Assembly (NCBI RefSeq): GCF_018336915.1
Contig: NZ_CP064923.1
Span: 5,610,001 to 5,642,000, forward strand
Direction: 5' to 3'
DNA length: 32,000 nt
DNA from: Acaryochloris marina S15
GTDB taxonomy: Bacteria > Cyanobacteriota > Cyanobacteriia > Thermosynechococcales > Thermosynechococcaceae
Shown here piece by piece: positions 8,169 to 29,799 of this stretch. Under the pieces are notes generated by a model, which saw only the letters and a list, made by a program, of their open reading frames with translations, was not told where the DNA came from and did not search any database. Within the stretch, counting starts at the first letter, position 1. Every line of letters starts with the position of its first letter. The translations under genes were made by a program, and so were the position numbers.

Positions 8169-9980
8169 TTATCTTCGTTGCCACCATAGAGCTGCCGCTG
8201 TCGCCAAGGCAGTCAATGGCAATAGCACAATCCCAAACACACTCAGCAACATCCTCATTTGGTCAGAAATGTCTAGGGTTCTTTGAATCACGCGCTTAGG
8301 ACGAATAGACAATGTCGGATCATCGCCATCCATAATCAGCCAGGACACCGCATTCACGAAAATATCGCGATTCACAGTCTGCTCAAAGTAGGGGTCATCT
8401 TTGGCAAAATCAGAGTCTCCGATAATCACAACCCGAGCAGCCTCACCTTGAATTTCAGGTTGAAGAGATTCACCCGTTGGGGGGGGTACCGATTCCGTCG
8501 ATAGGGGAGGGGTAGGTGCTAAGGACGGACTAGGAACAGATTCAGAATTAGGTGCAGTTGGAGAAGCGCTAGGAACAGCCTCACCTGTAGGAGACGCTGT
8601 TGGACTAGGGGAGGAGTTTGGACTAGGCGGAGAAAGGGAGGGTTTTGGTGGAGGCGAAGGCTTTTCTTTAGGAGCGGGTGGAGGGGCAGAAATAGACCGT
8701 TTAATCGCCACCCCAATGGTTAATGGACCTTTGCGATCGCGTCCTTGATCCAACTGAATTTGCTGGCCCGTCAGATCCGTTTCCGCCCATGACGCTTCAC
8801 TCGTTTGCAAGAGTGGCGTCACTTGTTGACCGGGCTGTTCTTGTACATCCACCGCTTGGGCAAAGGGAAAGAAGGACAGCTTTTGGCTAAAGCTCTCGGT
8901 AATGGGATGCTCACCATAGGTCAAGGCAGCGGGCCAAGCCAAGCGGGCATGTTTTGGATCCACAATCAACCGACCATCCAATTTGGCACTCATGGCTTCC
9001 AGAATGGGCTTTAAGCCTACATCCACCTCAGGATCCAGCATCAAGAATAAATTGCCGCCCTTTTTGAGGAAATCACGAATTAAGGTCACTTCAGCTTCTA
9101 GCAACGGTAACTTTGGCCCAGCAATCACCAACACATCCGCATCATCTGGAATCTGTTGCTGTAGGGATAGATTCAAGGGTTCGACGGTAATTCCTTCCAT
9201 TTTCAGCTGATTAACCGCCCCCGCCAAACTCTCTGTAAACCCCGATAAGGGTACTTCATTATGGCCTTGAATCATGTAAGCCGTGGCTTTTCGCTCATTC
9301 GTCAATAGTGCGATCGCAGGGGTTAACGTTACTTCTGATAACCCCGAAGACAGCAGCTTCATGCGCTGGTCATATACCAAGCTAATATCACCCAAATTAC
9401 GAATGTTATGCTTGCGGGCTAAGCCGGGTTCCGCCTGGGGATCGATAAAGCGGAATTTGAATTTATTGGGCTGCTGTCGTTGGTATTCCTTCAGCAATAA
9501 CTGATTCTGCAACACAATCTGACTTTGAGAATCCGAAGCAGACGGATCATTGCCAATAAAAACCAACACTTCCACGGGGTTGGGGAGGGCCGACAACACA
9601 TTCAGAGTTTGGGGAGCGAGGGAGTAGGTTTTCTGTTCCGTGAAATCTGCCCGATAGGGGTACCGCACGACAATAAAGTTCACCAAGCCCAAAATCACCA
9701 GCACCGCTAGAGTTGCCACTAAGGCATTGGTACCCGATTGGGTCGATCGCCACTGCCACCATGGGTTGGAGGGCGATAGTCTTTGCCACCGCCACACCAA
9801 AGAGATACCCAACAGCACCACCCCACTCAGCATCACGCCCAGGGGTAGCGAAAACCACTGACCAGATACAAACCCAGCCGAGAAGCCAGCAACCATTAAG
9901 GCCACACTAAACCAGCTCAGGAAATTGATGACTTTAGAACCCACCCTTGTCACATCTGCCCTTCCATTCTCAAACTTCAA
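8169..9980 (-). CDS. GldG-like auxiliary component of an ABC-type uncharacterized transport system
   Basis: 603 aa with N-terminal TM helices, a large extracytoplasmic domain and a C-terminal TM (LLSVFGIVLLPLTALATAAALWW). It immediately follows an ABC-2 permease. The start appears to be TTG at 9980. It contains a Pro/Ser-rich low-complexity insert of about 75 aa. Confidence 0.7.
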   Translation of the reverse strand: MKFENGRADVTRVGSKVINFLSWFSVALMVAGFSAGFVSGQWFSLPLGVMLSGVVLLGISLVWRWQRLSPSNPWWQWRSTQSGTNALVATLAVLVILGLVNFIVVRYPYRADFTEQKTYSLAPQTLNVLSALPNPVEVLVFIGNDPSASDSQSQIVLQNQLLLKEYQRQQPNKFKFRFIDPQAEPGLARKHNIRNLGDISLVYDQRMKLLSSGLSEVTLTPAIALLTNERKATAYMIQGHNEVPLSGFTESLAGAVNQLKMEGITVEPLNLSLQQQIPDDADVLVIAGPKLPLLEAEVTLIRDFLKKGGNLFLMLDPEVDVGLKPILEAMSAKLDGRLIVDPKHARLAWPAALTYGEHPITESFSQKLSFFPFAQAVDVQEQPGQQVTPLLQTSEASWAETDLTGQQIQLDQGRDRKGPLTIGVAIKRSISAPPPAPKEKPSPPPKPSLSPPSPNSSPSPTASPTGEAVPSASPTAPNSESVPSPSLAPTPPLSTESVPPPTGESLQPEIQGEAARVVIIGDSDFAKDDPYFEQTVNRDIFVNAVSWLIMDGDDPTLSIRPKRVIQRTLDISDQMRMLLSVFGIVLLPLTALATAAALWWQRR

Positions 9981-9997
9981 CTCCCATTAGCCGCGAT

Positions 9998-10768
9998 CTA
10001 GCGTCGCTGGAACCGCAATAAATCAATTGACTGGGCTGTGAGAAATAAGCCCAAGACAATGTAACTCACAAACAGAATCACGCTGCTCATATCCAAAACC
10101 CCTTGGGTTAAGGTGACGTAGTGTTTCACCAAAGACAACTGATCAAAAATAGCCACCCAAGGTTCTCCCCAGCGCTCTCCCAGCAAAAACAGCAGTGATA
10201 AGATCAAAATCAGGGCATAGGTGAGGATAATGGCCAAAATAGAGCTATCAGCCAGGGACGAAATAAACAGTCCCAAGGACAAAATGGCCGCCGCCAACAA
10301 AAAGAGTCCCAGATGGCCCACAACAAAAACTCCTGCGGTAATGGGCGGATCAGCATGGCTCAAAAACAAAATCTCCAGCACCCCCACCGGCAGCATCAAG
10401 GTCACAAATAGGGTCCACACGGCTAGGAGTTTTCCCAACGCCACAGCCCAATTCGTAATAGGAGAGGTAGCCAACAGCTCTAACGTCCGATGACGACGTT
10501 CTTCGGCATAGAGGCCCATGGATAAACTGGGCATCAGGAACATCACCAACCACCACATGCCGGACAAAAAGGATTTAAGGCTTTCTTGGGGCACATCCAC
10601 CACCTGGCCAGCTGTTTTTTGGGCGGTCCATAGCTGGACTTCACTCACAAATAAACTACAGGCCAACAGCCAAAAGACTCCAGCAATCACATAGGCCAAG
10701 GAGGATTTAAAGTACCCCTGCAGTTCCTTGCGAAAGATAGCCATGACATTGTTAAAAATCAAAATCAT
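9998..10768 (-). CDS. ABC-2 type transporter permease
   Basis: A 256-aa polytopic membrane protein. Its ATG overlaps the upstream ATPase stop in an ATGA (10765..10768), implying translational coupling. Confidence 0.8.
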   Translation of the reverse strand: MILIFNNVMAIFRKELQGYFKSSLAYVIAGVFWLLACSLFVSEVQLWTAQKTAGQVVDVPQESLKSFLSGMWWLVMFLMPSLSMGLYAEERRHRTLELLATSPITNWAVALGKLLAVWTLFVTLMLPVGVLEILFLSHADPPITAGVFVVGHLGLFLLAAAILSLGLFISSLADSSILAIILTYALILILSLLFLLGERWGEPWVAIFDQLSLVKHYVTLTQGVLDMSSVILFVSYIVLGLFLTAQSIDLLRFQRR

Positions 10769-14529: not shown

Positions 14530-14936
14530 AAAACAGATGAAACGCCGCTCAAATACGATATCAAATCAACTCAGACTGAGCTGAAACTTCACAGCCTGCC
14601 CCGTAGATGGGCTCACCCTAGATCCTGAGTTATGTGCGGAAGTCTCTTCAGTCCGCTCTAGACCTATAAAATCTTCTCTAGCAGTGAAAGCTAGATAATA
14701 TGCAAAATCTGCGTCGTATCGATGCCAAAATCGAATATTAATGAGCAGAATGTTCACATAGAACAGCTACAGTAAGGCTCGGCATGGGATTTTAACCCCT
14801 GCAATAGGTATCGCACAGCACTTTCGGTTCAACACTCCTACCCAACGTCATATCTATTGCTCATGACTCTGACGCAATTTTTCTTACCGCACTAGAGCGT
14901 CGAGTTCATTCCATCTAGAGGATTCTAGGACAACTC

Positions 14937-15164
14937 ATGAGCTATATCCATGTTCTACTAGAGTATTTAATCGGCCAGTTCCCCTGCTTGCAAGGGTGTC
15001 GATTGGTATACGATCCTGGCTCCAAAACACTTTACGTAGACTGTCAGCATCTCAACATTCACGAATTTATGGTGAAGGAAATAGAAACGATTTCCCTACT
15101 CGATATTGGGGTTGCCCATTTCATCATCACCGTCCCTAACGCAACCGATATTGTTCGAGACTAA
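14937..15164 (+). CDS. Hypothetical small protein (75 aa)
   Basis: An ATG-initiated ORF in an otherwise empty interval. I recognise no motif. Confidence 0.3.
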   Translation: MSYIHVLLEYLIGQFPCLQGCRLVYDPGSKTLYVDCQHLNIHEFMVKEIETISLLDIGVAHFIITVPNATDIVRD

Positions 15165-15260: not shown

Positions 15261-15554
15261 TTATGCGAGTGATTCAGTGTTTTGCTCCGCCAGGAAGCAT
15301 AAGGCTTGAAATCTTAAAAATGTGAGCTGCTCATAGAACGGATTCAGCTTACACAGGGGCGGAATGCGCATCACCGGATGTCCAAACACTGCAATGGTTC
15401 GCGCAAACGGGCACTGGGCAGGTATAAATCGACAAAGCCAATTGGCTTGGCGACGATCATCAACATGAATCGTTTCCAGCCAGTGGCGTATGCCATCTAG
15501 AAGGTGGATATTGAATTTGATCACGACTGTAGGCTCCTGGTCACAGAGCAACAA
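15261..15554 (-). CDS. Mo-dependent nitrogenase C-terminal domain (Mo-nitro_C) family protein
   Basis: IRHWLETIHVDDRRQANWLCRFIPAQCPFARTIAVFGHPVMRIPPLCKLNPFYEQLTFLRFQALCFLAE matches the conserved IPAQCPF...IPPLCKLNP core of this cyanobacterial family. The start is non-ATG, either TTG at 15554 or a downstream GTG. Confidence 0.7.
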   Translation of the reverse strand: MLLCDQEPTVVIKFNIHLLDGIRHWLETIHVDDRRQANWLCRFIPAQCPFARTIAVFGHPVMRIPPLCKLNPFYEQLTFLRFQALCFLAEQNTESLA

Positions 15555-16001
15555 TGGTTACTTCTGTGAAAATTGAGAATAAATAATGAGGCTTGGTATT
15601 GGCCTGAAGCGTTTTGCTCAGAGAATAGCGTGACTGACTAATCGCTATCATCACGTTCGTTTGTTGCCACAGGAAATATTGCCACTCTTCATCCTATAAT
15701 TAAGCCCAAAAAATTCAGTATTCGTCACTACAGAGTGCAAAAGAATTTTTTGTGACAGCATTGGCTCAGGTTTCTCTAGCCATGCTCAGGTGTACTGCCT
15801 TATGAGGGTATGACCACCTGTCTTGTACATGTAGATTCTGCATGAAATGCATGTAGCTCTTGCTAGCACACTGCCGTCTTGGTGTGTATAGATACGAAAG
15901 TCAAGGGAAATTCTCCGTAATCTGCCTAAATACCCTTCAAATGCAAGGCAATTGTTTTGGCAGTCGATGACTGCCAATCGGTAGATGGAGATTGAGCATT
16001 G

Positions 16002-17411
16002 ATGACACAGACCCTAGCCAGTGGCCCAGACGAACAACATCCACTTTCGGTCCCGTCCACATCCCCTGAAGCGGTAGAAAAACGCGAACTGACCTACTCT
16101 CAATTGGTCATGTATGCCGCTCTCATTGGTGTATTTGGGGGACTGGTTGCCACAGCGTATTACTTTGTTTTAGAAACCCTGATGCATGGCGTTTGGCATA
16201 CCATACCCGATCGGGTAGTACCCTATTTTCCCAGTTGGCTCCCTCAAAAACACTACGTTTGGATTGCCTCTACCATCGGTGGCTTCTGCGTCGGGCTTGT
16301 TCTGTTCTTTATGGGCCTGCCAGGAGAGATGGCCCAAGTCGTCGATAAAATTCACAGCCCTGGCAAAATTGATATCCGCAAAACCCCAGCTATGATTATT
16401 GCGTCTTTGGTGGCAATTACCTCAGGGGGTAGTGCTGGGCCAGAAGCACCTTTGGTTCAGGTGAATGGTAGCTTTGGTAGCTGGCTGGGAGAAAAATTGC
16501 AGCTCACTACCACTTCGGTACGGGTGCTGACTTTTTGTGGCATGAGTGCAGCCTTGGGTGCTTTTTTTGGAGCGCCCATTGGTGCCGCCCTATTCGCTTT
16601 AGAAATTCCCCATCGTAAGGGTCTGGAATATTACGAAGCGATTGCCCCAGCCGTCGTTTCCGCGATTTTTTCCTTTGCTGTCTTTCGCATCAATACTGGC
16701 ATGACCATCGGCGGTTTCTATCATTTCGAAACAGTGCCACCTTTAACACCCATCAACTTACTGGAAGGATTAGTGCTGGGAGTGATTGGTGCTGGTGTTG
16801 CAGTGATGTTTATCGGCATATTTCGCTTGGTGGGCCATTTGCTCGCTCCCCTAGAACATTCTCGAATTCTCTTAGCCACCCTGGGAGGTCTAACCATTGG
16901 TTTAATTGCCTTGGCCTTTCCCCAAACGCTATTTTTCAGCGAAGAGCAGATTCATACAGTGATTGAAACGGGCGCAACCTTAGGGATTAGCTTTTTGCTA
17001 ATGATCGCAGTAGCCAAGATGTTTGCCATTAGCGTGACGCTCCATTCTGGCTTTTTAGGTGGATTTATTTTTCCTCTATTTTTCATTGGTGCAAATGTCG
17101 GTCTAGCGATTTCCCTGATGGTGCCTCAGGTTCATCCCACATTGGGCATGGTCTGCTTAATGGCTGCGGTGAATGTGGCGGTGACGAAAACTCCCGTGAG
17201 CACTAGCATTATTCTCAGTGTGTTGTCTGGTACGGCGATGCTGCCCGTCATTGTGATTGCTAGCTTTGTGAGCTTTTTACTGACAAGCCAAATTGCCATG
17301 ATCAAAACCCAACGGTCCCGAGAGTTAGAAGGATTTCCAACACCTGCTCTGTCAACCTCTGAATTGACTCCTAGCTTGACGTCTAGTCCCGCATCTCTAG
17401 CAATCGAGTAG
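16002..17411 (+). CDS. ClC-family voltage-gated chloride channel/antiporter homologue
   Basis: About 10-12 TM helices. ClC selectivity-filter-like motifs GGSAGPEAP (GxEGP-type, Glu present) and GFLGGFIFPLFFIGA (GxFxP). ATG at 16002, with an in-frame TTG at 15999. Confidence 0.85.
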   Translation: MTQTLASGPDEQHPLSVPSTSPEAVEKRELTYSQLVMYAALIGVFGGLVATAYYFVLETLMHGVWHTIPDRVVPYFPSWLPQKHYVWIASTIGGFCVGLVLFFMGLPGEMAQVVDKIHSPGKIDIRKTPAMIIASLVAITSGGSAGPEAPLVQVNGSFGSWLGEKLQLTTTSVRVLTFCGMSAALGAFFGAPIGAALFALEIPHRKGLEYYEAIAPAVVSAIFSFAVFRINTGMTIGGFYHFETVPPLTPINLLEGLVLGVIGAGVAVMFIGIFRLVGHLLAPLEHSRILLATLGGLTIGLIALAFPQTLFFSEEQIHTVIETGATLGISFLLMIAVAKMFAISVTLHSGFLGGFIFPLFFIGANVGLAISLMVPQVHPTLGMVCLMAAVNVAVTKTPVSTSIILSVLSGTAMLPVIVIASFVSFLLTSQIAMIKTQRSRELEGFPTPALSTSELTPSLTSSPASLAIE

Positions 17412-19313: not shown

Positions 19314-19643
19314 CTATTCAGCAAACATTTCAGTCAAGATCGATAAGAGCATTTGCTGCTCATCTTGATTGATCTGACCTAGCTTTTTGACTAATCGTTT
19401 TTTATCAACTGTGCGAATTTTATCCAAAACAATTTGTCCATCTTTTCCCTGAAATTGGCAAGCAACACGCGTTGGATATTGCCTTCCTTTTGTGGTCATG
19501 GGAGCGATGATCACTGTGGCAATGTATTGGTTCATCTCGTTAGGAGAGATCACAATACACGGTCGCGTCTTCTGAATTTCACTCTCTACTGTCGGATCGA
19601 GGTTAACTAGAAACACATCAAAACGCTTGACTACCACTCCCAT
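19314..19643 (-). CDS. mazF: Type II toxin-antitoxin system toxin, PemK/MazF family endoribonuclease
   Basis: FDVFLVNLDPTVESEIQKTRPCIVISPNEMN...VIIAPMTTKGRQYPTRV is the canonical PemK/MazF pattern. It overlaps the upstream antitoxin gene by 13 nt. Confidence 0.9.
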   Translation of the reverse strand: MGVVVKRFDVFLVNLDPTVESEIQKTRPCIVISPNEMNQYIATVIIAPMTTKGRQYPTRVACQFQGKDGQIVLDKIRTVDKKRLVKKLGQINQDEQQMLLSILTEMFAE

Positions 19644-19891
19644 TCAGTATCATCCCAGTCGGTAGTGTTGACTTCATCTAAAAACACATCGTCATGATGT
19701 TGGGCCATGGAAGCAAAAGCTGCATCCCACCCAGCACGAGAACATTCAGCAGTACGAATGGTTAAGCAGTCTCCTTGCACGGTAATCTCAACCTCTCCAT
19801 TGAGACCACTTTGCTCTAATAAAAGCTTGGGAATGCGAATACCCTGGGAGTTGCCAATTTTAACGATGCGGGTCCTAATAGCTGTATCCAT
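19631..19891 (-). CDS. mazE: Type II antitoxin, AbrB/MazE/SpoVT family
   Basis: N-terminal swapped-hairpin motif VKIGNSQGIRIPKLLLEQSGL. The C-terminus is acidic and Trp-rich (DEVNTTDWDDTEWEW). It lies upstream of and overlaps mazF. Confidence 0.88.
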   Translation of the reverse strand: MDTAIRTRIVKIGNSQGIRIPKLLLEQSGLNGEVEITVQGDCLTIRTAECSRAGWDAAFASMAQHHDDVFLDEVNTTDWDDTEWEW

Positions 19892-20010: not shown

Positions 20011-21219
20011 TCACCATTCTTGGAGTGCGATCGCAACTCCGTCTCGCACATCTTTTTCCACCGTATCGTCTTCTGCTAAAGCCTGGAGCTTAGTGTAGGC
20101 AAGCTCTGAAGAGATTTGTTTGAGGGCTGCGATCGCATGGAGTCTCACCCCCATATCCGCAATCCCTAATAGCCGTATCAATTCTGGTATCGCTGTCGTA
20201 TCACCTAATTGCCCCAGGGCACTGGCAATCGTTTTATTTAAGGTCAGATCCGCACCGGGGTGATGATGCAAACAATAGATCAAAGCCTGAGTAGACACCC
20301 CTTGCAATTCTGGTTGGCGATGGAGGGTTAACGCTTTAATAATCGCTTCTGCTAGGGTCAAATTCTCATCATCAATCACCTGCAGGGCAGACGTTGTATG
20401 GGGCCAAAGCTTCTGTAAAAACCGCACAGACTGGTCATTACCAATCTGGCCCAGGGCCTGAATAATCGTTAGCTTGAAGGGGGCAGGGATATTGTCAGCA
20501 CTAGCCGTCATCCGTAACGCCTGAGCAGCCGTATCAGTACCCAACCGTCCCAGGGCCAACGCCGCCCCTTGGCAGACTTGGACATCCACATCAGTGAGAA
20601 ACGGCTGAATCAACGCCACCGGATCATGATCATGCTCATAGAAGAGGTGAGCACGATAACTAATACTTGCGATCGCAACTTGGCGAACCTGGGCACTTAA
20701 ATCAGCTAATCCCTGGAGTAAGACTGGGATAATTTGTGGATCATGAAATCGGCCAAGCGTTTCGATCACCTGCAGGCGAACCGATGCATCTTCGTCAGCA
20801 ACCGCCTTGATTAAGATCGGCACAATCACTGCATCTTGCATTTGCGACAACGCAGAGACCACCAGCCCCCGAGCAGGGGATGATTCCAGTAATGTGGCTA
20901 ATGCATCTATAGATTGTGGGCCAATTTGGGCCAGCATTTGGGCGGCGATTTCAGCAACATCATCATCATCCGCTTCTTGCAATAGCTGCGTTAATGCCAT
21001 CACGGCATCCGCATGATTAAACTCGCCTAAGATTCGGGCCACAAACCATTGCAGCTCAGGATCATCGGCGTTGTTCTGGAGAAGATCAACCAAAAACGTG
21101 ATTGCTGGTTCTCCAAAGTCAGGAATTTGCTTAGCCGTTTCCCAACGAGATGCGAAATCTCCTTGTTCTAGCTTCGTTAAAACGGATATGAGTTCACTCA
21201 CAGCGGTTGGTGATTGCAT
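20011..21219 (-). CDS. HEAT-repeat (PBS-lyase HEAT-like) protein, divergent from nirA
   Basis: Repeated ~31-aa units of the form D..VR..A..ALG.(I/L)G....(I/V)..L...L throughout, for example DASVRLQVIETLGRF, SAQVRQVAIASI and DMGVRLHAIAALKQI. ATG at 21219, with an alternative TTG at 21252. Confidence 0.8.
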   Translation of the reverse strand: MQSPTAVSELISVLTKLEQGDFASRWETAKQIPDFGEPAITFLVDLLQNNADDPELQWFVARILGEFNHADAVMALTQLLQEADDDDVAEIAAQMLAQIGPQSIDALATLLESSPARGLVVSALSQMQDAVIVPILIKAVADEDASVRLQVIETLGRFHDPQIIPVLLQGLADLSAQVRQVAIASISYRAHLFYEHDHDPVALIQPFLTDVDVQVCQGAALALGRLGTDTAAQALRMTASADNIPAPFKLTIIQALGQIGNDQSVRFLQKLWPHTTSALQVIDDENLTLAEAIIKALTLHRQPELQGVSTQALIYCLHHHPGADLTLNKTIASALGQLGDTTAIPELIRLLGIADMGVRLHAIAALKQISSELAYTKLQALAEDDTVEKDVRDGVAIALQEW

Positions 21220-21262
21220 GCCACTGCTATTCTCTCCAAACTGATTAAACAATTTGTCGATA

Positions 21263-21283
21263 GATATGCAATTTCAGCATATC
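21263..21283. promoter_or_regulatory. Perfect 7-N7-7 palindrome GATATGC-AATTTCA-GCATATC in the nirA/HEAT intergenic region. It is a candidate LysR-type (T-N11-A) operator.
   Basis: Read directly. The arms are exact reverse complements. The core ATATGC-N7-GCATAT recurs at 25267..25289 upstream of the porin gene, with the same distance to an NtcA box. Confidence 0.55.
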
Positions 21284-21318
21284 TGATTTGCAGAAACTAC
21301 ATATAGGCTATCACTTTC

Positions 21319-21360
21319 GTAACGACGGATACGAACGATCGCCATTGGAGTCGCTAAGTT
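21319..21360 (+). promoter_or_regulatory. NtcA-activated (class II-like) nirA promoter: NtcA box GTAACGACGGATAC plus a -10 element TAAGTT
   Basis: A GTA-N8-TAC consensus at 21319..21332, followed after exactly 22 nt by a TAN3T hexamer at 21355..21360. This is the canonical geometry, with the NtcA box centred near -41.5. Confidence 0.75.
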
Positions 21361-21432
21361 AGTATCCCAATCGCAGAAATTGATGATGTTCAATTTTTGA
21401 TTGGTAATGACGCGAGTTCAAAAGGATCAAAC

Positions 21433-23379
21433 GTGAGTAATACCGCCCCAGCCGCGCCCAAAATGAATAAATTTGAGCGCTTCAAAGCGGAAAAAGATGG
21501 TTTGGCAATTCTGCCTGAACTGTCCCACTTTGCCCAGATCGGTTGGGAAGCCATGGATGACACCGACCTCACCCAACGCCTCAAATGGGTTGGATTATTC
21601 TTCCGCCCCGTCACCCCTGGCAAGTTCATGCTGCGGATGCGGATGCCCAACGGTATTCTCAGCGGCGGCCAAATGCGCGTCTTGGCTGAAGTGATTCAGC
21701 AGTATGGCGAAGATGGCTATGCCGATATTACCACTCGCCAAAATATCCAGTTGCGCGGTATTCACATCGAAGATATCCCCGATATTTTTAATCGATTCCA
21801 GCAGGCGGGTTTGACCAGCATGCAATCGGGAATGGACAACGTCCGCAACATTACCGGATCCCCCGTCGCTGGCCTGGATGCCAATGAACTGATTGATACC
21901 CGCGGTCTGGTCCGCAAAGTCCAGGACATGATCACCAATAACAGTCAGGGCAACCCCGCCTTCACCAATCTGCCTCGGAAATTCAACATTGCGATCGCAG
22001 GTGGTCGCGACAACTCCGTCCATGCCGAAATCAATGATATTGCCTTTGTTCCGGCTTACAAAGACGAAAAACTAGGCTTCAACGTTGTCGTCGGTGGCTT
22101 CTTTTCGGCTAAGCGCTGTGCCCCCGCTATTTCAATGAATGTTTGGGTCGATCACACCCAAGTAGTCGATATCAGCGAAGCCATTCTGATTGTTTACCGC
22201 GACAATGGTTCACGGGCCAATCGCCACCAATCTCGGATGATGTGGCTCATCGAAGAATGGGGCGTCGAACGCTTCCGAGCGGCTGTAGAAACCCAGATGG
22301 GTGTCACCCTCCAATCCGAAGCCGACAAAGATGAATTTGACTGGGACAAACGGGACCATATTGGCGTCCATGTCCAGCAACAACCTGGCTTGAACTTTGT
22401 GGGCATGCACGTCCCCGTGGGTCGTCTCTATGCCAACGATATGTTCGAGTTTGCCCGGATGGCCGAAGTCTACGGCAGTGGTGAAATTCGGCTCACCGTT
22501 GAGCAAAATGTCCTCATTCCCAATATTCCCGATTCTCGTCTTGACTCCTTTTTACAAGAGCCTTTGTTAGAGGTCTTCTCCATCAACCCCGATCCCCTCA
22601 CACGGGCCTTGGTGTCCTGTACCGGCAGCCAGTTTTGTAAGTTTGCTCTGATAGAAACCAAAAACCAAGCCGTAGCGGTGATTAATGACCTAGCAGATGA
22701 GCTAGAAGTCCCTAAACCCGTGCGTTTTCACTGGACTGGATGCCCGAATTCCTGTGGTCAACCCCAAGTCGCAGATATTGGCTTAATGGGCACCAAAACC
22801 CGCAAGGATGGCAAGACCGTCGAAGCCGTGGACTTATTCATGGGAGGCAAAGTCGGTAAAGATGCCGTACTCGGTGAAAAAGTCCAGAAAGCCATTCCCT
22901 GTGACGAGCTCAGAGGCGTCTTAAAAGATATTCTCATTCAACAGTTTGACGCTCAACCCCGATCCACTCCCCGCCCATCCCAAGGGATGGCCGGACTTTC
23001 ACGTCAACGCAGTTTGCACGGCACGGTGAGCCAGAACGGTTCTGCGCCCCCTGCTGCTGTCGTTCCGGCAGTAGCGCCTCCTGCACCAGTGGCTACACCC
23101 GCTTCGGCGGCCCAGCCCGCTGTGGTTCAGTTTGCAGCATCTGGCAAGGAGGTCAACTGTGATGACAGCCAATCCATATTAGAAATTGCGGAGGCTGCCG
23201 GAGTTGAGATTGAAAGCAGTTGCCAGTCTGGCAGTTGTGGCACCTGCGTCGCCAAGCTCGTTGAGGGTGAATTCCGATACGAAGCCGATCCAGACGGCTT
23301 AGGAGAAGATGATGCCGCATCAGGGCATATCTTGACCTGTATTGCCTACCCAGTCGGCAAAGTAGTCTTGGATGCCTAG
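21433..23379 (+). CDS. nirA: Ferredoxin-nitrite reductase fused to a C-terminal plant-type [2Fe-2S] ferredoxin domain
   Basis: NKFERFKAEKDGLA N-terminus. Siroheme/4Fe-4S cysteines SCTGSQFC and TGCPNSCGQ. A C-terminal Ala/Pro linker is followed by SSCQSGSCGTC...LTC (C-x4-C-x2-C-x~30-C). The start is ambiguous: GTG 21433 with AAGGA 6 nt upstream, ATG 21463, or the ORF opening at 21397. Confidence 0.93.
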   Translation: MSNTAPAAPKMNKFERFKAEKDGLAILPELSHFAQIGWEAMDDTDLTQRLKWVGLFFRPVTPGKFMLRMRMPNGILSGGQMRVLAEVIQQYGEDGYADITTRQNIQLRGIHIEDIPDIFNRFQQAGLTSMQSGMDNVRNITGSPVAGLDANELIDTRGLVRKVQDMITNNSQGNPAFTNLPRKFNIAIAGGRDNSVHAEINDIAFVPAYKDEKLGFNVVVGGFFSAKRCAPAISMNVWVDHTQVVDISEAILIVYRDNGSRANRHQSRMMWLIEEWGVERFRAAVETQMGVTLQSEADKDEFDWDKRDHIGVHVQQQPGLNFVGMHVPVGRLYANDMFEFARMAEVYGSGEIRLTVEQNVLIPNIPDSRLDSFLQEPLLEVFSINPDPLTRALVSCTGSQFCKFALIETKNQAVAVINDLADELEVPKPVRFHWTGCPNSCGQPQVADIGLMGTKTRKDGKTVEAVDLFMGGKVGKDAVLGEKVQKAIPCDELRGVLKDILIQQFDAQPRSTPRPSQGMAGLSRQRSLHGTVSQNGSAPPAAVVPAVAPPAPVATPASAAQPAVVQFAASGKEVNCDDSQSILEIAEAAGVEIESSCQSGSCGTCVAKLVEGEFRYEADPDGLGEDDAASGHILTCIAYPVGKVVLDA

Positions 23380-23454: not shown

Positions 23455-25047
23455 ATGTTGACAGAAATGTGGTCGTTTAAGGGCCGCTACAAAATCCTAC
23501 ACATGACTTGGTTTGCGTTTTTCCTGTCCTTCGTGGTCTGGTTTAACTTCCCACCTTTTGCTACCACGATTGGCCAAGAATTTGGGCTCACAAAGCCACA
23601 GCTTGGAACCATTGGTCTATGTAATGTTGCCCTCACGGTCCCTGCCCGCATCATCATTGGCATGGTGTTAGACCGTTATGGACCGCGTTTGACCTACTCT
23701 CTGCTGTTAATGTATGCAGCCATTCCTTGTTTAATTTTTGCTACCGCCCAAGGCTTTACTCAATTGGTGATTGGCCGATTGCTCATGGGTATTGTGGGGG
23801 CAGGATTTGTGATTGGCATCCGCATGACTGCCGAGTGGTTTCCCCCCAAAGAAGTGGGAACAGCAGAAGGCATTTATGGAGGATGGGGTAACTTTGGTTC
23901 TGCCTTCTCCGCCTTTACCATGGTTCTGGTTGCAACTGCCTTAAGCTTCATTCCAGGTGCTTTCAACTTTGGCGAAGCTCAAACCTTTACTGTTTTGGGT
24001 TTATCTTTCTCTAGCTCAGTGTTGAACTGGAGAGCAGCCATTGGCGGCTCGGGTATCATCGCTGCGATTTATGGCTTCATCTACTATGCCAATGTCCAAA
24101 ATACCCCTCCTGGAAAAGTTTATCAACGTCCTAAAAGTGCTCGAGGTCTAGAAGTCACTTCTGTCAGAGACTTCTACTTCCTGATGGTGATGAACATTCC
24201 TTTAACTGCCATTTTGATGGTACTGGCTTGGCGATTAAATAAAGTCAATTTCTTGACCCCATCCGCCATGTACATTACCTGGGTAGCTCTCTTTGGTCTC
24301 TATGCTTTCCAGTCTTACAACTGCTGGAGTGCCAATAAAGACTTGCTCTCAGGCCGGAAGCGCTATGCTCCTGAAGACCGCTATAAGTTTAAGCAAGTTG
24401 CCATCTTAGAACTGACTTACATTGTTAATTTTGGTTCTGAACTAGCTGTTGTAACTATGCTCCCTGCTTTCTTTGAAGGAACCTTTGGCCTCGACAAAGC
24501 CATGGCCGGTATTATTGCTTCTAGCTATGCCTTTATGAACCTGGTTTCCCGACCTGGTGGCGGTATTATCTCTGACAAAATGGGTAGCCGAAAGTGGACG
24601 ATGGTTATTCTCACGGGCGGCATGGGCATTGGTTATCTACTCATGAGCCAAGTCACCAGCAATTGGTGGCTACCCGCAGCCGTACTATTGACAATGGCCT
24701 GTTCCTTCTTCGTCCAAGCCTCCGAAGGATCTACCTTCGCGATTGTGCCTTTAGTTAAGCGCAGAGTCACAGGTCAAATCGCTGGCAACGTCGGCGCTTA
24801 CGGTAATGTTGGCGCTGTTGCCTACCTCACCACTCGCCTGCTATTCGTAGATGGAGCTGGTGCAACTCCCAATATGGCTGCTGTGAACTCTAGCTTTTTC
24901 CAGGTTCTAGGAACTACCGGTTTGATTGTCGCTTTCCTCTGTATCTTTTTCCTAGAAGAGCCTCAAGGCTCTTTTGCTGAAAGTCATGAAGGGGAAGAAA
25001 CATCAACTAATAGCCCTGTAGGGATCAAATATCCAACTACTCCATAG
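23455..25047 (+). CDS. nrtP: MFS nitrate/nitrite permease (NrtP/NapA, NarK family)
   Basis: A 12-TM MFS profile with NarK-type conserved segments (GGWGNFG and GNVGAYGNVGA). It sits between nirA and narB, 75 nt after nirA. Confidence 0.88.
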   Translation: MLTEMWSFKGRYKILHMTWFAFFLSFVVWFNFPPFATTIGQEFGLTKPQLGTIGLCNVALTVPARIIIGMVLDRYGPRLTYSLLLMYAAIPCLIFATAQGFTQLVIGRLLMGIVGAGFVIGIRMTAEWFPPKEVGTAEGIYGGWGNFGSAFSAFTMVLVATALSFIPGAFNFGEAQTFTVLGLSFSSSVLNWRAAIGGSGIIAAIYGFIYYANVQNTPPGKVYQRPKSARGLEVTSVRDFYFLMVMNIPLTAILMVLAWRLNKVNFLTPSAMYITWVALFGLYAFQSYNCWSANKDLLSGRKRYAPEDRYKFKQVAILELTYIVNFGSELAVVTMLPAFFEGTFGLDKAMAGIIASSYAFMNLVSRPGGGIISDKMGSRKWTMVILTGGMGIGYLLMSQVTSNWWLPAAVLLTMACSFFVQASEGSTFAIVPLVKRRVTGQIAGNVGAYGNVGAVAYLTTRLLFVDGAGATPNMAAVNSSFFQVLGTTGLIVAFLCIFFLEEPQGSFAESHEGEETSTNSPVGIKYPTTP

Positions 25048-25094
25048 ATAGATATCCATCTTTAACGGATATCAAAATTCAGGTTACTCTTGGC

Positions 25095-25137
25095 AAAAAC
25101 GAGAGATTTGTACAATCTACAAATCTCTCGTTTTTTG
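25095..25137 (+). terminator. Rho-independent terminator after nrtP
   Basis: A perfect 13-bp stem CGAGAGATTTGTA / TACAAATCTCTCG (25100..25130) with a 5-nt loop, followed by TTTTTT. An A-tract upstream makes it potentially bidirectional. Confidence 0.8.
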
Positions 25138-25266: not shown

Positions 25267-25289
25267 TTATATGCGAAAAATGCATATAA
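25267..25289. promoter_or_regulatory. Palindrome TTATATGC-GAAAAAT-GCATATAA upstream of the porin gene. It shares the core of the nirA-upstream palindrome.
   Basis: Read directly: 8-bp perfect arms with a 7-nt spacer. The core ATATGC-N7-GCATAT is identical to that at 21264..21282. Confidence 0.55.
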
Positions 25290-25323
25290 TTTGTGCGAAT
25301 TATTCATATCTTTATCCTTATTT

Positions 25324-25365
25324 GTTCGAAGAGATACAAATCGGGATAGAGGTATTCATTACACT
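25324..25365 (+). promoter_or_regulatory. Putative NtcA-type promoter of the porin gene: GTTCGAAGAGATAC plus -10 TACACT
   Basis: A GTT-N8-TAC box at 25324..25337, one mismatch from GTA-N8-TAC. After exactly 22 nt there is a TAN3T hexamer at 25360..25365. The box centre lies 52.5 bp from the palindrome centre, the same distance as at nirA. Confidence 0.55.
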
Positions 25366-25437
25366 TAGCGGACGCTGAACTTAATTAATATTCTTCAAGT
25401 TCCGCTCAATAATTCGGTGTGAGGTTACTGAAACAAC

Positions 25438-27246
25438 ATGTCAAAACGTTTGTCCTGGTATCGGCTACTTTTTAATACCAGCGTTTTAGGAATTGCAATG
25501 GTCAATTGCATTCCTGCCCAAGCAGCACCCGAGACATCTAATCTTGATGTTACGGCTGAACAATTGGACATCGCTCCCAGTGAGGAAGTCATCCCTACAA
25601 CACTACCGTCTGTAGATGAGGCCCTGGAACTCGCGCAAGCAGTGGAAACACCCACTCTAGCCAGTCCCCCTACTTCTATTGCAGACATCGCTGGCAATCA
25701 AAACGATCCGTATTTTCCTTCGGATCCGAGTTTGCATGCCTCTGACGCCTCTCTTGGTCAGGTAACGTCTGTCTCCCAACTGTCTGATGTACAGCCTGAT
25801 GACTGGGCTTTCCAAGCCATTCAGTCTTTGGTGGAACGCTATGGATGTGTGGCTGGTTACCCCAACGGTACATTTCGTCCCAGTCGAGCCATGTCGCGAC
25901 GTGAAGCTGCGGCGTTGGTCAATGCTTGCTTAGATAACTTGAGCAATCGGTTTGCCACGAAAGAAGATTTGGATGCCCTCAAAGCGTTGCAAGATGAATT
26001 TGCCGCTGAACTCGCTACCCTTAGAGGCCGCGTCGATGGTTTAGAAGCGAGAGTCGCAACCGTAGAATCCCAACAATTCTCTACCACCACTAAATTAAAC
26101 GGGGAAGCTATTTTTGCTTTCAGTGGTGTTGCTGGCGATAACGCCACTACTGGTGCTGATATTAGTGGGCGAGTCTCTCTAAACCAGAGAACCCGTTTAA
26201 ATTTCATCACCAGCTTTACCGGTAAAGATCGGTTATATACCCGACTACAAACCTCTAATCGTCCTGTCAACTTTAGCGACGGTGCTATCCCTGGAATTAT
26301 TGACAATACAGGGACTCTGCAAACTCGGGTTGCCTTTGACACCGGCAACACCAACAACAGCGTTATCCTCGATCGCTTAGACTACAAATTCCCCATTGGT
26401 GACAAACTCAATGTTACGGTCTTTGCCAATGCGGCCTTCCACCATTACTACGCCACCACCGTCAACCCTTACTTTGAAGGATTTGGTGGTGGTAAAGGTG
26501 CCCTCTCATTCTTTGGTGAGCGCAACCCCATCTATCGAATTGGTACGGTTGCTATTCCCAATGTTGCGGGCGTCGGCACCTCTTACATGTTCAACAAAGA
26601 AAATGATTTTCGCCTTGACTTAGGCTACTTAGCGGGTCGTGCTAACCAAGCAACAACCACGGCCTTGGCCAATGGCGAAAATGAAGGTGGGTTATTTGGT
26701 GGGACCTATAGCGCTTTAGCTCAACTCAGCATTAAACCCACAGAAGGGTCTCAGGTTGGCTTAACCTATGTCCGTAATGAAGCCCCTGATGGCTTAATGA
26801 GGTTTGGCACAGGAACCGTCTTTTCCAATAATCCTTTTGGCGGTGCTAATAATATTACTGGTGATTCCTTCGGCTTTGAAGGAACCCTCAAATTAGCAGA
26901 TTGGGTCGCTGTAGGCGGTTGGTTTGGCTATACGATTGCCCGCGAAGACAATACCACCAATAAAGCAGACATTATCAATGCTGCCATTAACTTTGCCTTT
27001 CCTGATCTCGGGATGGAAGGAGCCACCGGTGGCTTAATTGTTGGAGTACCGCCAACAGTAATTAATAATGATGTCGCTGCTAGGGAGAACCCCGATCAAA
27101 CCTTCCATTTGGAAGCTTTATATTCCTTCCCTGTTAATGACTTCATCACCATTACGCCTGGCGTGATTTATCTCATTAATCCTGAAGGCAACTCCGCCAA
27201 CAGTGACATCTTAGTTGGTGTCATTCGGACGACATTTAAGTTCTAA
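25438..27246 (+). CDS. Cyanobacterial outer-membrane porin: signal peptide, SLH domain, coiled coil and an OprB-like beta-barrel
   Basis: Signal peptide ...AMVNCIPAQAAP. SLH motif DVQPDDWAFQAIQSLVERYGCVAGYPNGTFRPSRAMSRREAAALV. Coiled coil LDALKALQDEFAAELATLRGRVDGLEARV. Alternating beta-strand pattern ending in a C-terminal aromatic (...RTTFKF). Confidence 0.88.
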   Translation: MSKRLSWYRLLFNTSVLGIAMVNCIPAQAAPETSNLDVTAEQLDIAPSEEVIPTTLPSVDEALELAQAVETPTLASPPTSIADIAGNQNDPYFPSDPSLHASDASLGQVTSVSQLSDVQPDDWAFQAIQSLVERYGCVAGYPNGTFRPSRAMSRREAAALVNACLDNLSNRFATKEDLDALKALQDEFAAELATLRGRVDGLEARVATVESQQFSTTTKLNGEAIFAFSGVAGDNATTGADISGRVSLNQRTRLNFITSFTGKDRLYTRLQTSNRPVNFSDGAIPGIIDNTGTLQTRVAFDTGNTNNSVILDRLDYKFPIGDKLNVTVFANAAFHHYYATTVNPYFEGFGGGKGALSFFGERNPIYRIGTVAIPNVAGVGTSYMFNKENDFRLDLGYLAGRANQATTTALANGENEGGLFGGTYSALAQLSIKPTEGSQVGLTYVRNEAPDGLMRFGTGTVFSNNPFGGANNITGDSFGFEGTLKLADWVAVGGWFGYTIAREDNTTNKADIINAAINFAFPDLGMEGATGGLIVGVPPTVINNDVAARENPDQTFHLEALYSFPVNDFITITPGVIYLINPEGNSANSDILVGVIRTTFKF

Positions 27247-27279: not shown

Positions 27280-27314
27280 TAGGGAACGAAAAATTTTCGT
27301 TCCCTAATTTTTTT
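27280..27314 (+). terminator. Rho-independent terminator after the porin gene
   Basis: A 13-bp palindromic stem TAGGGAACGAAAA / TTTTCGTTCCCTA (27280..27306) followed by A plus a T7 run (27308..27314). Confidence 0.8.
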
Positions 27315-27474
27315 ACCTTCTCTAATTTTTGGGATAGTTTTTCTAACTCCACAACACGGTCTCCAGGCTTGAAGATCGATCACATGGGCTTTATTGCAAA
27401 ATTAGTGCATTTACAGGGGCATGATTAAAGTGCATACAAACAATGTTGAGAACGCATTACGCAGATCAGGAACC

Positions 27475-27516
27475 GTAGCTAATCTTACAATTTTTGCCTG
27501 AAATGTTGATGATAAT
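27475..27516 (+). promoter_or_regulatory. NtcA-activated narB promoter: GTAGCTAATCTTAC plus -10 GATAAT
   Basis: A perfect GTA-N8-TAC at 27475..27488. After exactly 22 nt there is a -10-like GATAAT at 27511..27516. It lies ~60 nt upstream of the narB ATG. Confidence 0.7.
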
Positions 27517-27573: not shown

Positions 27574-29799
27574 ATGACTGAACCTGTCAAAACTTTATGT
27601 CCTTACTGTGGTGTGGGCTGTGGATTAGAAGTACTGCCTCCGGCTTTGCCAGGTAAGCCTGTCAATCGAGATAGCGCGGGAACCCCCATCTGGCGAGTGC
27701 GGGGCGATCAAGCCCACCCTTCCAGCAAGGGCCAAGTTTGTGTCAAAGGAGCAACGGTTGCCGGCGCATTAGATAAAGATCGGCTGCGCTACCCGATGAT
27801 GCGGGATTCTCTAGACCAACCGTTTCGGCAGGTCACATGGGACGAAGCTTTAGAGCGGGTGGTGAGTGAACTTAAAACCGTTCATGCCAACCAAGGTCCA
27901 GACGCCATTTGCATGTATGGCTCCGGGCAGTTTCAAACCGAAGATTATTACATCGCTCAAAAGTTATTGAAAGGTTGTCTAGGCACTAATAATTTTGATG
28001 CCAATTCTCGTCTTTGCATGTCTTCTGCAGTGGCAGGGTATATCCAAAGTTTTGGCTCTGATGGCCCACCTCCTTGCTATGACGACTTGGAGCTGACGGA
28101 CTGTGCTTTTTTAATCGGGACTAATACAGCAGAATGTCATCCGATCGTTTTTAATCGGTTGCTCAAGCATCACAAGAAAAACCGCCACGTCAAAATGATT
28201 GTGGTTGACCCTAGACGTACCAAAACAGCAGAGAAAGCCGATCTGCATCTGGCCATTAAGCCTGGCACAGATATTAATTTGCTCAACGGCATTGCCCACT
28301 TGCTGATGCGTTGGGGGAAGTTTGACTCTCTTTTTATTGATGAATGTACTTCTGGTTTCGCCAGCTTTGCTAGTGTTATCAGTCAATATCCACCGGAATT
28401 AGTCGCCAGAGACTGTGGCATTCGTGTCGATGAACTCGAAAAAGCAGCCCAATACTGGAGCGAATCCCAGCGAGTGCTATCCCTGTGGTCCATGGGGGTC
28501 AATCAATCAACGGAAGGGACTGCCAAATGCCGCACCATCATTAATTTGCACTTGATGACGGGCACCATCGGTAAACCTGGTTCAGGCCCCTTTTCCTTAA
28601 CCGGGCAGCCGAATGCCATGGGAGGCCGTGAAGCGGGTGGATTATCTCATATTCTGCCCGGGTACCGGGTCGTCAAGAATCCTCAGCATCGTCAGGATGT
28701 AGAAAAAGCTTGGCAACTACCAGAAGGTAGTATTTCTCCTCAGCCCGGTTTAACAGCTTGGGATATGATTCTAGGTCTAGAAAACCAAAGCGTCGGTTTT
28801 TTCTGGGTAGCTGCAACCAATCCCGCTGTTAGTATGCCAGATATTAAACGCACCAAAGCGGCGTTATTGAAATCTCGGTTTACGATCTGTCAGGATGCTT
28901 ACTATCCCACAGAAATGGCCGATTATGCCCATGTGTTGCTACCGGCAGCCCAGTGGAGCGAGAAAACGGGCATCATGACGAATTCCGAACGCGTAGTCAC
29001 CTATTGTCCTACTTTTCGAGAGCCCGTAGGAGAAGCCCGAGCTGATTGGGACATTTTTGCTGAAGTCGGACGTCGCTTAGGGTTTGAGCGGGAGTTTGCC
29101 TTTGCCAATTCTGCAGAGGTGTATACCGAGTTTGTGAAACTAACCCGCGATCGCATCTGCGATATGAGCGGCCTCAGCCATGATCTCCTGAAAAATGGCC
29201 CCATTCAATGGCCCTTTCCCGCCTGTGCTCTAGGCGATACCATCGATGCCACCGCAACCGGCAAACGACTCTATACCAATCATCGATTTCCCACAGAAGA
29301 TGGCCGGGCCCGGTTCTCATCCTTTCATGCCAAAGGATTGGCTGAACCCCCCGACCCTGATTATCCTTTTGTACTAACGACGGGCCGCCTCTACGGTCAT
29401 TGGCATACCCAAAGCCGCACGGGACGGATTGAGAAGGTGGCCGGGATGTATCCCAATCCCTTCGTTGAGATCCATCCTCGGGATGCCGCCCGTATTGGCA
29501 TTCAGGAGGGGGAAGTATTGGAAGTGCGATCGCGTCGTGGCTTTGCTCGCGTTCCCACCAAAATTACCAAAGCCATTGCCCCTGGCACCGTCTTCATTCC
29601 CATGCATTGGGGAGCTTTATGGGCCAAACATGCTGAGGTGAATGCCTTAACCCATCCTGAAGCCTGTCCCATCTCTCTAGAACCAGAGCTGAAAGCCTGT
29701 GCCGTTCAGCTTATCCCCGCTAGCGCTTTACCTGCAGATTCTGAAGAAAATGCTGTGGAGCGACCTGCTGCATCCCTCGTCGCTCCTTCCCATTCTTAA
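27574..29799 (+). CDS. narB: Assimilatory ferredoxin-nitrate reductase (molybdopterin oxidoreductase)
   Basis: N-terminal 4Fe-4S motif CPYCGVGCG...C(VKG). MopB-family domains along the full length. C-terminal molybdopterin dinucleotide-binding region ([26 protein letters not shown]). Confidence 0.93.

Follow-up and report, generated by a model that had tools for sequence, protein, structure and literature searches.

The perfect inverted repeat that precedes nirA in the window analysed here (the whole 32-kb stretch of Acaryochloris marina S15 DNA) is very probably the promoter-distal half of a canonical, predicted NtcB box at 21266-21302. Its motif, its two-palindrome architecture and its predicted position all match the NtcB box of the Anabaena nirA promoter, which has been defined both experimentally and structurally. 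The first-pass annotation of this region had rightly put NtcB forward as the candidate regulator, but in light of this match neither the operator nor its binding protein should be regarded as unassigned, which is how that annotation had left them. The kind of site, its position and its target gene, nirA, are all already known, and NtcB regulons have reportedly been predicted earlier by comparative genomics (Lopatovskaya et al. 2011; RegPrecise). The site can be annotated as a predicted NtcB box in a nirA promoter that NtcA and NtcB would co-activate. Only three aspects of our findings are mildly new: in Acaryochloris, predicted regulation of a porin and a CLC channel by NtcB/NtcA; in a Rivularia/Calothrix lineage, a spacer one turn longer; and the probable assignment as nirB of the HEAT-repeat gene that diverges from nirA.

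The palindrome, AGATATGC-AATTTCA-GCATATCT, lies in the intergenic interval 21253-21432 between the leftward HEAT-repeat gene and the rightward nirA (Table 1). An inverted repeat had been correctly recognized at this place, but its arms are 8 bp long around a 7-nt spacer rather than 6 or 7 bp, and a second, degenerate palindrome had been missed. The ATATGC-N7-GCATAT core of the distal palindrome occupies 21264-21282. The proximal palindrome starts 7 bp 3' of the distal one, retains 6 of the 8 core bases, and is covered by a match with two mismatches at 21286-21304. Together the two palindromes read ATGC-N7-GCAT-N7-TTGC-N7-ACAT, which preserves 14 of the 16 core bases of the NtcB box with identical 7/7/7 spacing. 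The exact string ATATGC-N7-GCATAT occurs twice in the window, the second time in the promoter of the porin gene, and was absent from 100 dinucleotide-preserving shuffles. Likewise, the 37-bp box was found at 14/16 or better in four places (eight strand hits), compared to 0.02 strand hits in shuffled sequence. These counts rule out a chance palindrome.

The elements downstream of the palindrome fit the definition of a class-II NtcA promoter, in which GTA-N8-TAC lies approximately 22 nt 5' of a TAN3T -10 element and a good -35 is lacking (PMC3898017). Upstream of nirA, GTAACGACGGATAC is followed after 22 nt by TAAGTT, in agreement with the original assignment to this class, and a search of both strands of the nirA upstream region revealed no -35/-10 consensus promoter for sigma-70, as is expected of an activator-dependent promoter. 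The NtcA box and the -10 element predict that nirA transcription starts near 21367, which puts the center of the palindrome (21273) at -94, just where it had been placed before.

The reference for this architecture is the nirA promoter of Anabaena PCC 7120, where the NtcB box, ATGC-N7-GCAT-N7-ATGC-N7-GCAT, runs from -100 to -64 with its center at -82, and a 15-bp spacer separates it from an NtcA box at -48 to -35 (bioRxiv 10.1101/2022.10.10.511513). That box was defined by EMSA, mutagenesis and a cryo-EM structure at 4.5 A, with one dimer of NtcB DNA-binding domains on each palindrome (bioRxiv 10.1101/2022.10.10.511513). The conserved DNA-contact residues of NtcB are Arg34 and His53 in Anabaena numbering. 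The window shares with Anabaena the two ATGC-N7-GCAT-type palindromes 7 bp apart, the 37-bp length and, relative to the predicted start, a center near -82/-83, the GTA-N8-TAC NtcA box centered at -41.5, the TAN3T -10 element and nirA itself downstream. The two promoters differ in the spacer to the NtcA box, which is 16 bp in the window and 15 bp in Anabaena, and in the proximal palindrome, which is degenerate in the window (TTGC...ACAT) whereas that of Anabaena is full (ATGC...GCAT). The operons differ as well, comprising nirA-nrtP in the window and nirA-nrtABCD-narB in Anabaena, and the porin gene and narB of the window have copies of the composite promoter of their own, unlike in Anabaena. 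The palindrome had been thought to sit further upstream than expected. With the full element at -101 to -65 relative to the predicted start, the geometry is normal when set against that of Anabaena, and the apparent anomaly of distance disappears.

Table 1. Features of the window that bear on the predicted NtcB box and on the related composite promoters.
Feature	Position	Strand	Details
CLC composite (weaker), predicted	15829-15895	+	box 15829-15865, 12/16; spacer 16 bp; GTGTGTATAGATAC 15882-15895; TAATCT 15918-15923
CLC-family channel gene	15999-17411	+	downstream of the weaker composite promoter
HEAT-repeat gene, probable nirB by conserved position	20011-21219	-	ATG at 21219; ORF extendable to 21252
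Predicted NtcB box, distal palindrome	21262-21284	.	conserved core ATGC-N7-GCAT 21266-21280; center ~-94
Predicted NtcB box, proximal degenerate palindrome	21288-21302	.	TTGC-N7-ACAT; center ~-72
nirA composite, predicted	box 21266-21302	+	14/16; spacer 16 bp; GTAACGACGGATAC 21319-21332; TAAGTT 21355-21360
NtcA box GTAACGACGGATAC (GTA-N8-TAC)	21319-21332	+	GTA and TAC invariant in the alignment of relatives
-10 element TAAGTT (TAN3T)	21355-21360	+	22 nt 3' of the NtcA box
nirA, ferredoxin-nitrite reductase	21433-23379	+	likely GTG start at 21433 behind an AAGGA ribosome-binding site
nrtP, NarK-family nitrate/nitrite MFS permease	23455-25047	+	co-transcribed with nirA
Porin composite, predicted	25271-25337	+	box 25271-25307, 14/16; spacer 16 bp; GTTCGAAGAGATAC 25324-25337; TACACT 25360-25365
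OprB/SLH porin gene ('por_somb')	25438-27246	+	between nrtP and narB; own composite promoter
narB composite, predicted	27421-27488	+	box 27421-27457, 14/16; spacer 17 bp; GTAGCTAATCTTAC 27475-27488; GATAAT 27511-27516
narB	27574-29799	+	downstream of the third composite promoter

The same arrangement recurs widely in front of cyanobacterial nirA genes. Our comparison set comprised 80 loci encoding NirA relatives, which gave 79 usable nirA upstream regions. A position weight matrix is circular for this purpose, since scores are taken from whichever site fits a consensus best, but the test of the spacing between the two boxes is not. When the best match to the 37-bp box (12/16 or better) was required to lie exactly 15 or 16 bp 5' of GTN10AC, 52 of the 79 regions had this arrangement, compared to a mean of 0.005 in shuffled upstream regions. 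A composite NtcB+NtcA element is found 5' of nirA in 68 loci, and occasionally 5' of nrtP or another gene just 3' of nirA. The first-pass annotation had named absence of the palindrome from orthologous nirA promoters among the results that would count against it; its core is conserved instead. When the window was aligned with six Acaryochloris-type promoters (seven nirA upstream regions in all), the invariant columns were ATGC, GCAT, TGC, CAT, GTA and TAC, together with part of the -10 element. The N7 spacers vary freely, as do the AG/AT bases by which the distal arms are extended in the window. Invariant cores set among variable spacers and flanks point to base-specific protein contacts and not to a hairpin. 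The closest relatives in these comparisons are Acaryochloris, and not the Leptolyngbya-like organisms suggested at first: proteins are 89-95% identical, with NirA sharing 89% identity with its A. marina MBIC11017 counterpart and the NrtP, narB, porin and CLC products at 92-95%.

A variation on this spacing was seen in 16 further loci of the Rivularia/Calothrix type (including L030, L037, L040, L041, L043, L044, L046, L051, L052 and L054-L058), in which 25-26 bp separate the NtcB box from GTN10AC. The additional length equals one helical turn, so that the two proteins would still sit on one side of the DNA.

The nirA promoter is one of several such promoters in the window. Both strands were scanned for an NtcB-like box of 12/16 or better followed, after 14-17 bp, by GTN10AC, and this returned four matches, each on the coding strand of the downstream gene, where 0.043 were expected. 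In addition to nirA, the matches precede the porin gene, with a box that reads ATGC-N7-GCAT-N7-GTGC-N7-TCAT; narB, with ATGA-N7-GCAT-N7-ATGT-N7-GCAT; and, more weakly, the CLC-family channel gene, whose class-II NtcA promoter consists of GTG-N8-TAC, 22 nt and TAATCT. The transcription starts predicted for these three promoters are near 25372 (porin), 27523 (narB) and 15930 (CLC). A strong intrinsic terminator lies 3' of nrtP at approximately 25093-25136 (-25 kcal/mol, z = -7.4) and a second lies at 27280-27306, between the porin gene and the narB promoter. These terminators divide the cluster into nirA-nrtP, porin and narB units, and a predicted NtcB+NtcA promoter precedes each of them. Four Acaryochloris-type genomes retain the porin and narB promoters, again with the same footprint; in one of them (locus L004) nrtP is missing between nirA and the porin gene. 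The CLC arrangement recurs in A. marina MBIC11017 (L002, 3261-3297). The sequence and geometry of the NtcB element, its conservation and its repetition are direct observations. With spacers of 16-17 bp, four promoters in a single 32-kb window provide a clean natural replicate of the geometry of the looping model considered below.

Composite promoters were also seen inside the nitrate clusters of other lineages (L007 7806, L008 2121, L010 8188, L070 1587, and L015-L025 at approximately 9900-10000), some 5' of nrtP and some directly 3' of nirA, which suggests that several NtcB-dependent units per cluster are common.

Among the loci compared, the porin and CLC cases occur only in Acaryochloris. 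The literature searched contained no report of a porin or a CLC channel as an NtcB target, and nothing on a porin in a nitrate cluster. We regard as evenly balanced the proposal that the NtcB/NtcA regulon of Acaryochloris extends beyond the nir, nrt and nar genes to a dedicated OprB/Som-type outer-membrane porin and possibly to a CLC-family channel. If this is true, these bacteria would have an outer-membrane and an inner-membrane anion pathway specialized for nitrate or nitrite. The prediction that follows is that the Acaryochloris porin, and perhaps the CLC channel, may switch on together with nitrate assimilation.

The gene that diverges from nirA raises the question of which transcription unit the box serves. 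The HEAT-repeat protein has full-length homologues (30-41% identity) encoded directly upstream of nirA, and divergently, in at least 45 loci, and in several of these (L007, L010, L014) an ntcB-type LysR gene comes after it. On the basis of this conserved divergent position and of the LysR gene that follows in some loci, the HEAT-repeat gene is probably nirB, and thus the gene beside nirA may be this poorly understood one. In Anabaena, nirB is all0605 and adjoins nirA, alr0607. The literature searched contained nothing on NirB as a HEAT-repeat protein. Identity of the protein with NblB or CpcE was considered and rejected, as its scores fell far below the curated cut-offs.

In Synechococcus elongatus PCC 7942, the nirA promoter has an NtcA site near -40 and, upstream of it, an inverted repeat with the LysR motif that is needed for nitrite-responsive, NtcB-dependent activation; the nirB-ntcB operon of this organism is nitrogen-regulated from the shared intergenic region. 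The window resembles that system in the NtcA site near -40, the LysR-type inverted repeat upstream and the presence of a gene divergent from nirA, and the gene order at L007, L010 and L014 reproduces its nirB-ntcB arrangement. The S. elongatus ntcB comes after the divergent gene, whereas in the window a mazEF pair is found there instead. The nirA / nirB-ntcB divergent region of this strain is reportedly the subject of work by Aichi and Omata in 1997 and by Maeda and colleagues in 1998.

An alternative view is that the palindrome is an operator for the divergent, nirB-like gene, instead of or besides its role in nirA activation, with NtcB or another regulator repressing or activating a leftward promoter. 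The nitrogen regulation of nirB-ntcB in S. elongatus and the conservation of the divergent neighbor in those 45 or more loci both speak for it, as does the short distance involved: only 47 bp separate the NtcB box from the HEAT-repeat start codon (ATG, 21219), so any leftward promoter must overlap the NtcB or NtcA boxes. The promoter elements themselves argue in the other direction. The window contains no NtcB+NtcA composite on the minus strand, and leftward of the NtcA box there is no TAN3T at 22 nt, with TAGTTT lying at 19 nt; for want of a properly spaced -10 and a minus-strand composite, bidirectional use of the NtcA box was rejected. A sigma-70 consensus promoter was found on neither strand, and the 15-16 bp to the rightward NtcA box are kept where the upstream neighbor differs, for example at L004. 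Control of the HEAT-repeat gene from the same site is unsupported, and we consider an operator function for this gene unlikely.

The identity of the regulator can be approached from the genes that surround nirA as well as from the site itself. As the first-pass annotation had noted, there is no ntcB in the window: Pfam and NCBIfam scans of all the larger ORFs revealed no LysR-family gene. The flanks of contigs carrying identical proteins extended this search, and showed no ntcB over approximately 7 kb on the left of the window or 3 kb on its right. Cyanobacteria commonly encode members of the NtcB family, for which 2605 matches were obtained at E <= 1e-40; one member is named by its source as 'nitrogen assimilation transcriptional activator', and another example is encoded at L027 3347-4294 on the minus strand. 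In 18 related loci, ntcB-type LysR genes adjoin nirA; no Acaryochloris-labelled homologue was present among the 120 matches listed of the 2605. A 302-aa ORF in locus L004 had no NCBIfam match at E <= 1e-5 and thus shows no sign of being a LysR regulator. We assume that ntcB is present in the source genome. The failure to find ntcB near the window, and the fact that T-N11-A is generic for LysR-type regulators, would fit a site bound by some other LysR-type or other dimeric regulator rather than by NtcB. We judge this very improbable, given that the tandem of ATGC-N7-GCAT palindromes, their 7-bp separation and the phasing of 15-16 bp to the NtcA box constitute the experimentally defined NtcB box, and given that the element tracks nitrate-assimilation promoters across the 68 nirA loci.

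The chance that the inverted repeat is an RNA or DNA hairpin, for instance within the HEAT-repeat gene's 5' leader, and not a protein site is practically negligible. Its arms are perfect over 8 bp in the window, and RNA of the minus strand has a predicted folding energy of -22.9 kcal/mol across the region (z = -2.96). In relatives, however, the arms shrink to the 4-5 bp ATGC/GCAT core, and the flanks show no compensatory changes. The pairing of the two half-sites with each other in the predicted fold is a by-product of the tandem palindromes, and the absence of any Rfam match in the whole window speaks against a known RNA family.

An NtcB box that serves nirA also suggests how the promoter may work. 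We infer NtcB binding, the start sites, the response to nitrate or nitrite and the mechanism of activation at nirA by analogy with Anabaena. NtcB, a LysR-type protein, would bind as a tetramer, with its two dimers of DNA-binding domains on the two palindromes. The perfect distal palindrome would provide the high-affinity anchor, with the degenerate proximal palindrome serving as its partner site. NtcA with bound 2-oxoglutarate would occupy GTA-N8-TAC, 16 bp downstream and centered at -41.5, where it would serve as a class-II activator and bend the DNA. The two bends, by NtcA and by NtcB, would then loop the upstream DNA back, such that NtcB touches the N-terminal domain of the RNA polymerase alpha subunit, and this contact would boost transcription of nirA-nrtP when nitrate or nitrite is the nitrogen source. 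In the looping model on which this scheme is based, NtcA bends the DNA by approximately 50 degrees and NtcB by approximately 70 degrees, with NtcB contacting the same domain of the polymerase (bioRxiv 10.1101/2022.10.10.511513). Changing the Anabaena spacer by +/-5 bp abolishes co-activation; the effect of +/-1 bp is not reported (bioRxiv 10.1101/2022.10.10.511513). The arrangement is also reminiscent of the generic LysR pair of sites (RBS/ABS), in which a tetramer spans a strong palindromic T-N11-A site and, at a distance of one to two helical turns, a weaker site closer to the promoter. A classical LysR activation site adjoins the -35, whereas the element in the window is displaced 5' of a class-II activator and would act through a DNA loop.

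Several further observations concern the genes and sites around these promoters. An orphan NtcB-like box, ATGCAAAATCTGCGTCGTATCGATGCCAAAATCGAAT, lies at 14700-14736 (14/16) and lacks an NtcA box at the customary distance. A palindrome, TGTTC-N5-GAACA, comes next at 14751-14765. The orphan box lies approximately 200 bp 5' of a conserved 75-aa ORF at 14937-15164 (88% identical at the amino-acid level in A. marina) and recurs in A. marina MBIC11017 (L002, 2206-2242). Just upstream of the CLC gene, a 97-aa ORF on the minus strand (15261-15554) belongs to the Mo-nitro_C family (PF06967, E = 5e-34), and we presume that it may be a narM-like nitrate-reductase accessory gene. On the same strand, the mazEF toxin-antitoxin pair at 19314-19891 sits where ntcB would be. 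At its C terminus, NirA has a 2Fe-2S ferredoxin domain of the plant type (Fer2; residues 582-652 in the 660-aa ORF counted from TTG 21397). This long form, matching over more or less all 638 query residues, is found in about 35 of the 80 related loci, and about 45 others match only to approximately residue 500. Finally, the 5' leader of the porin gene contains a hairpin, TGAACTTAA...AAGTTCC, at approximately 25385-25417 (coordinates converted from alignment columns), which is kept in relatives and in which two pairs show compensatory changes.
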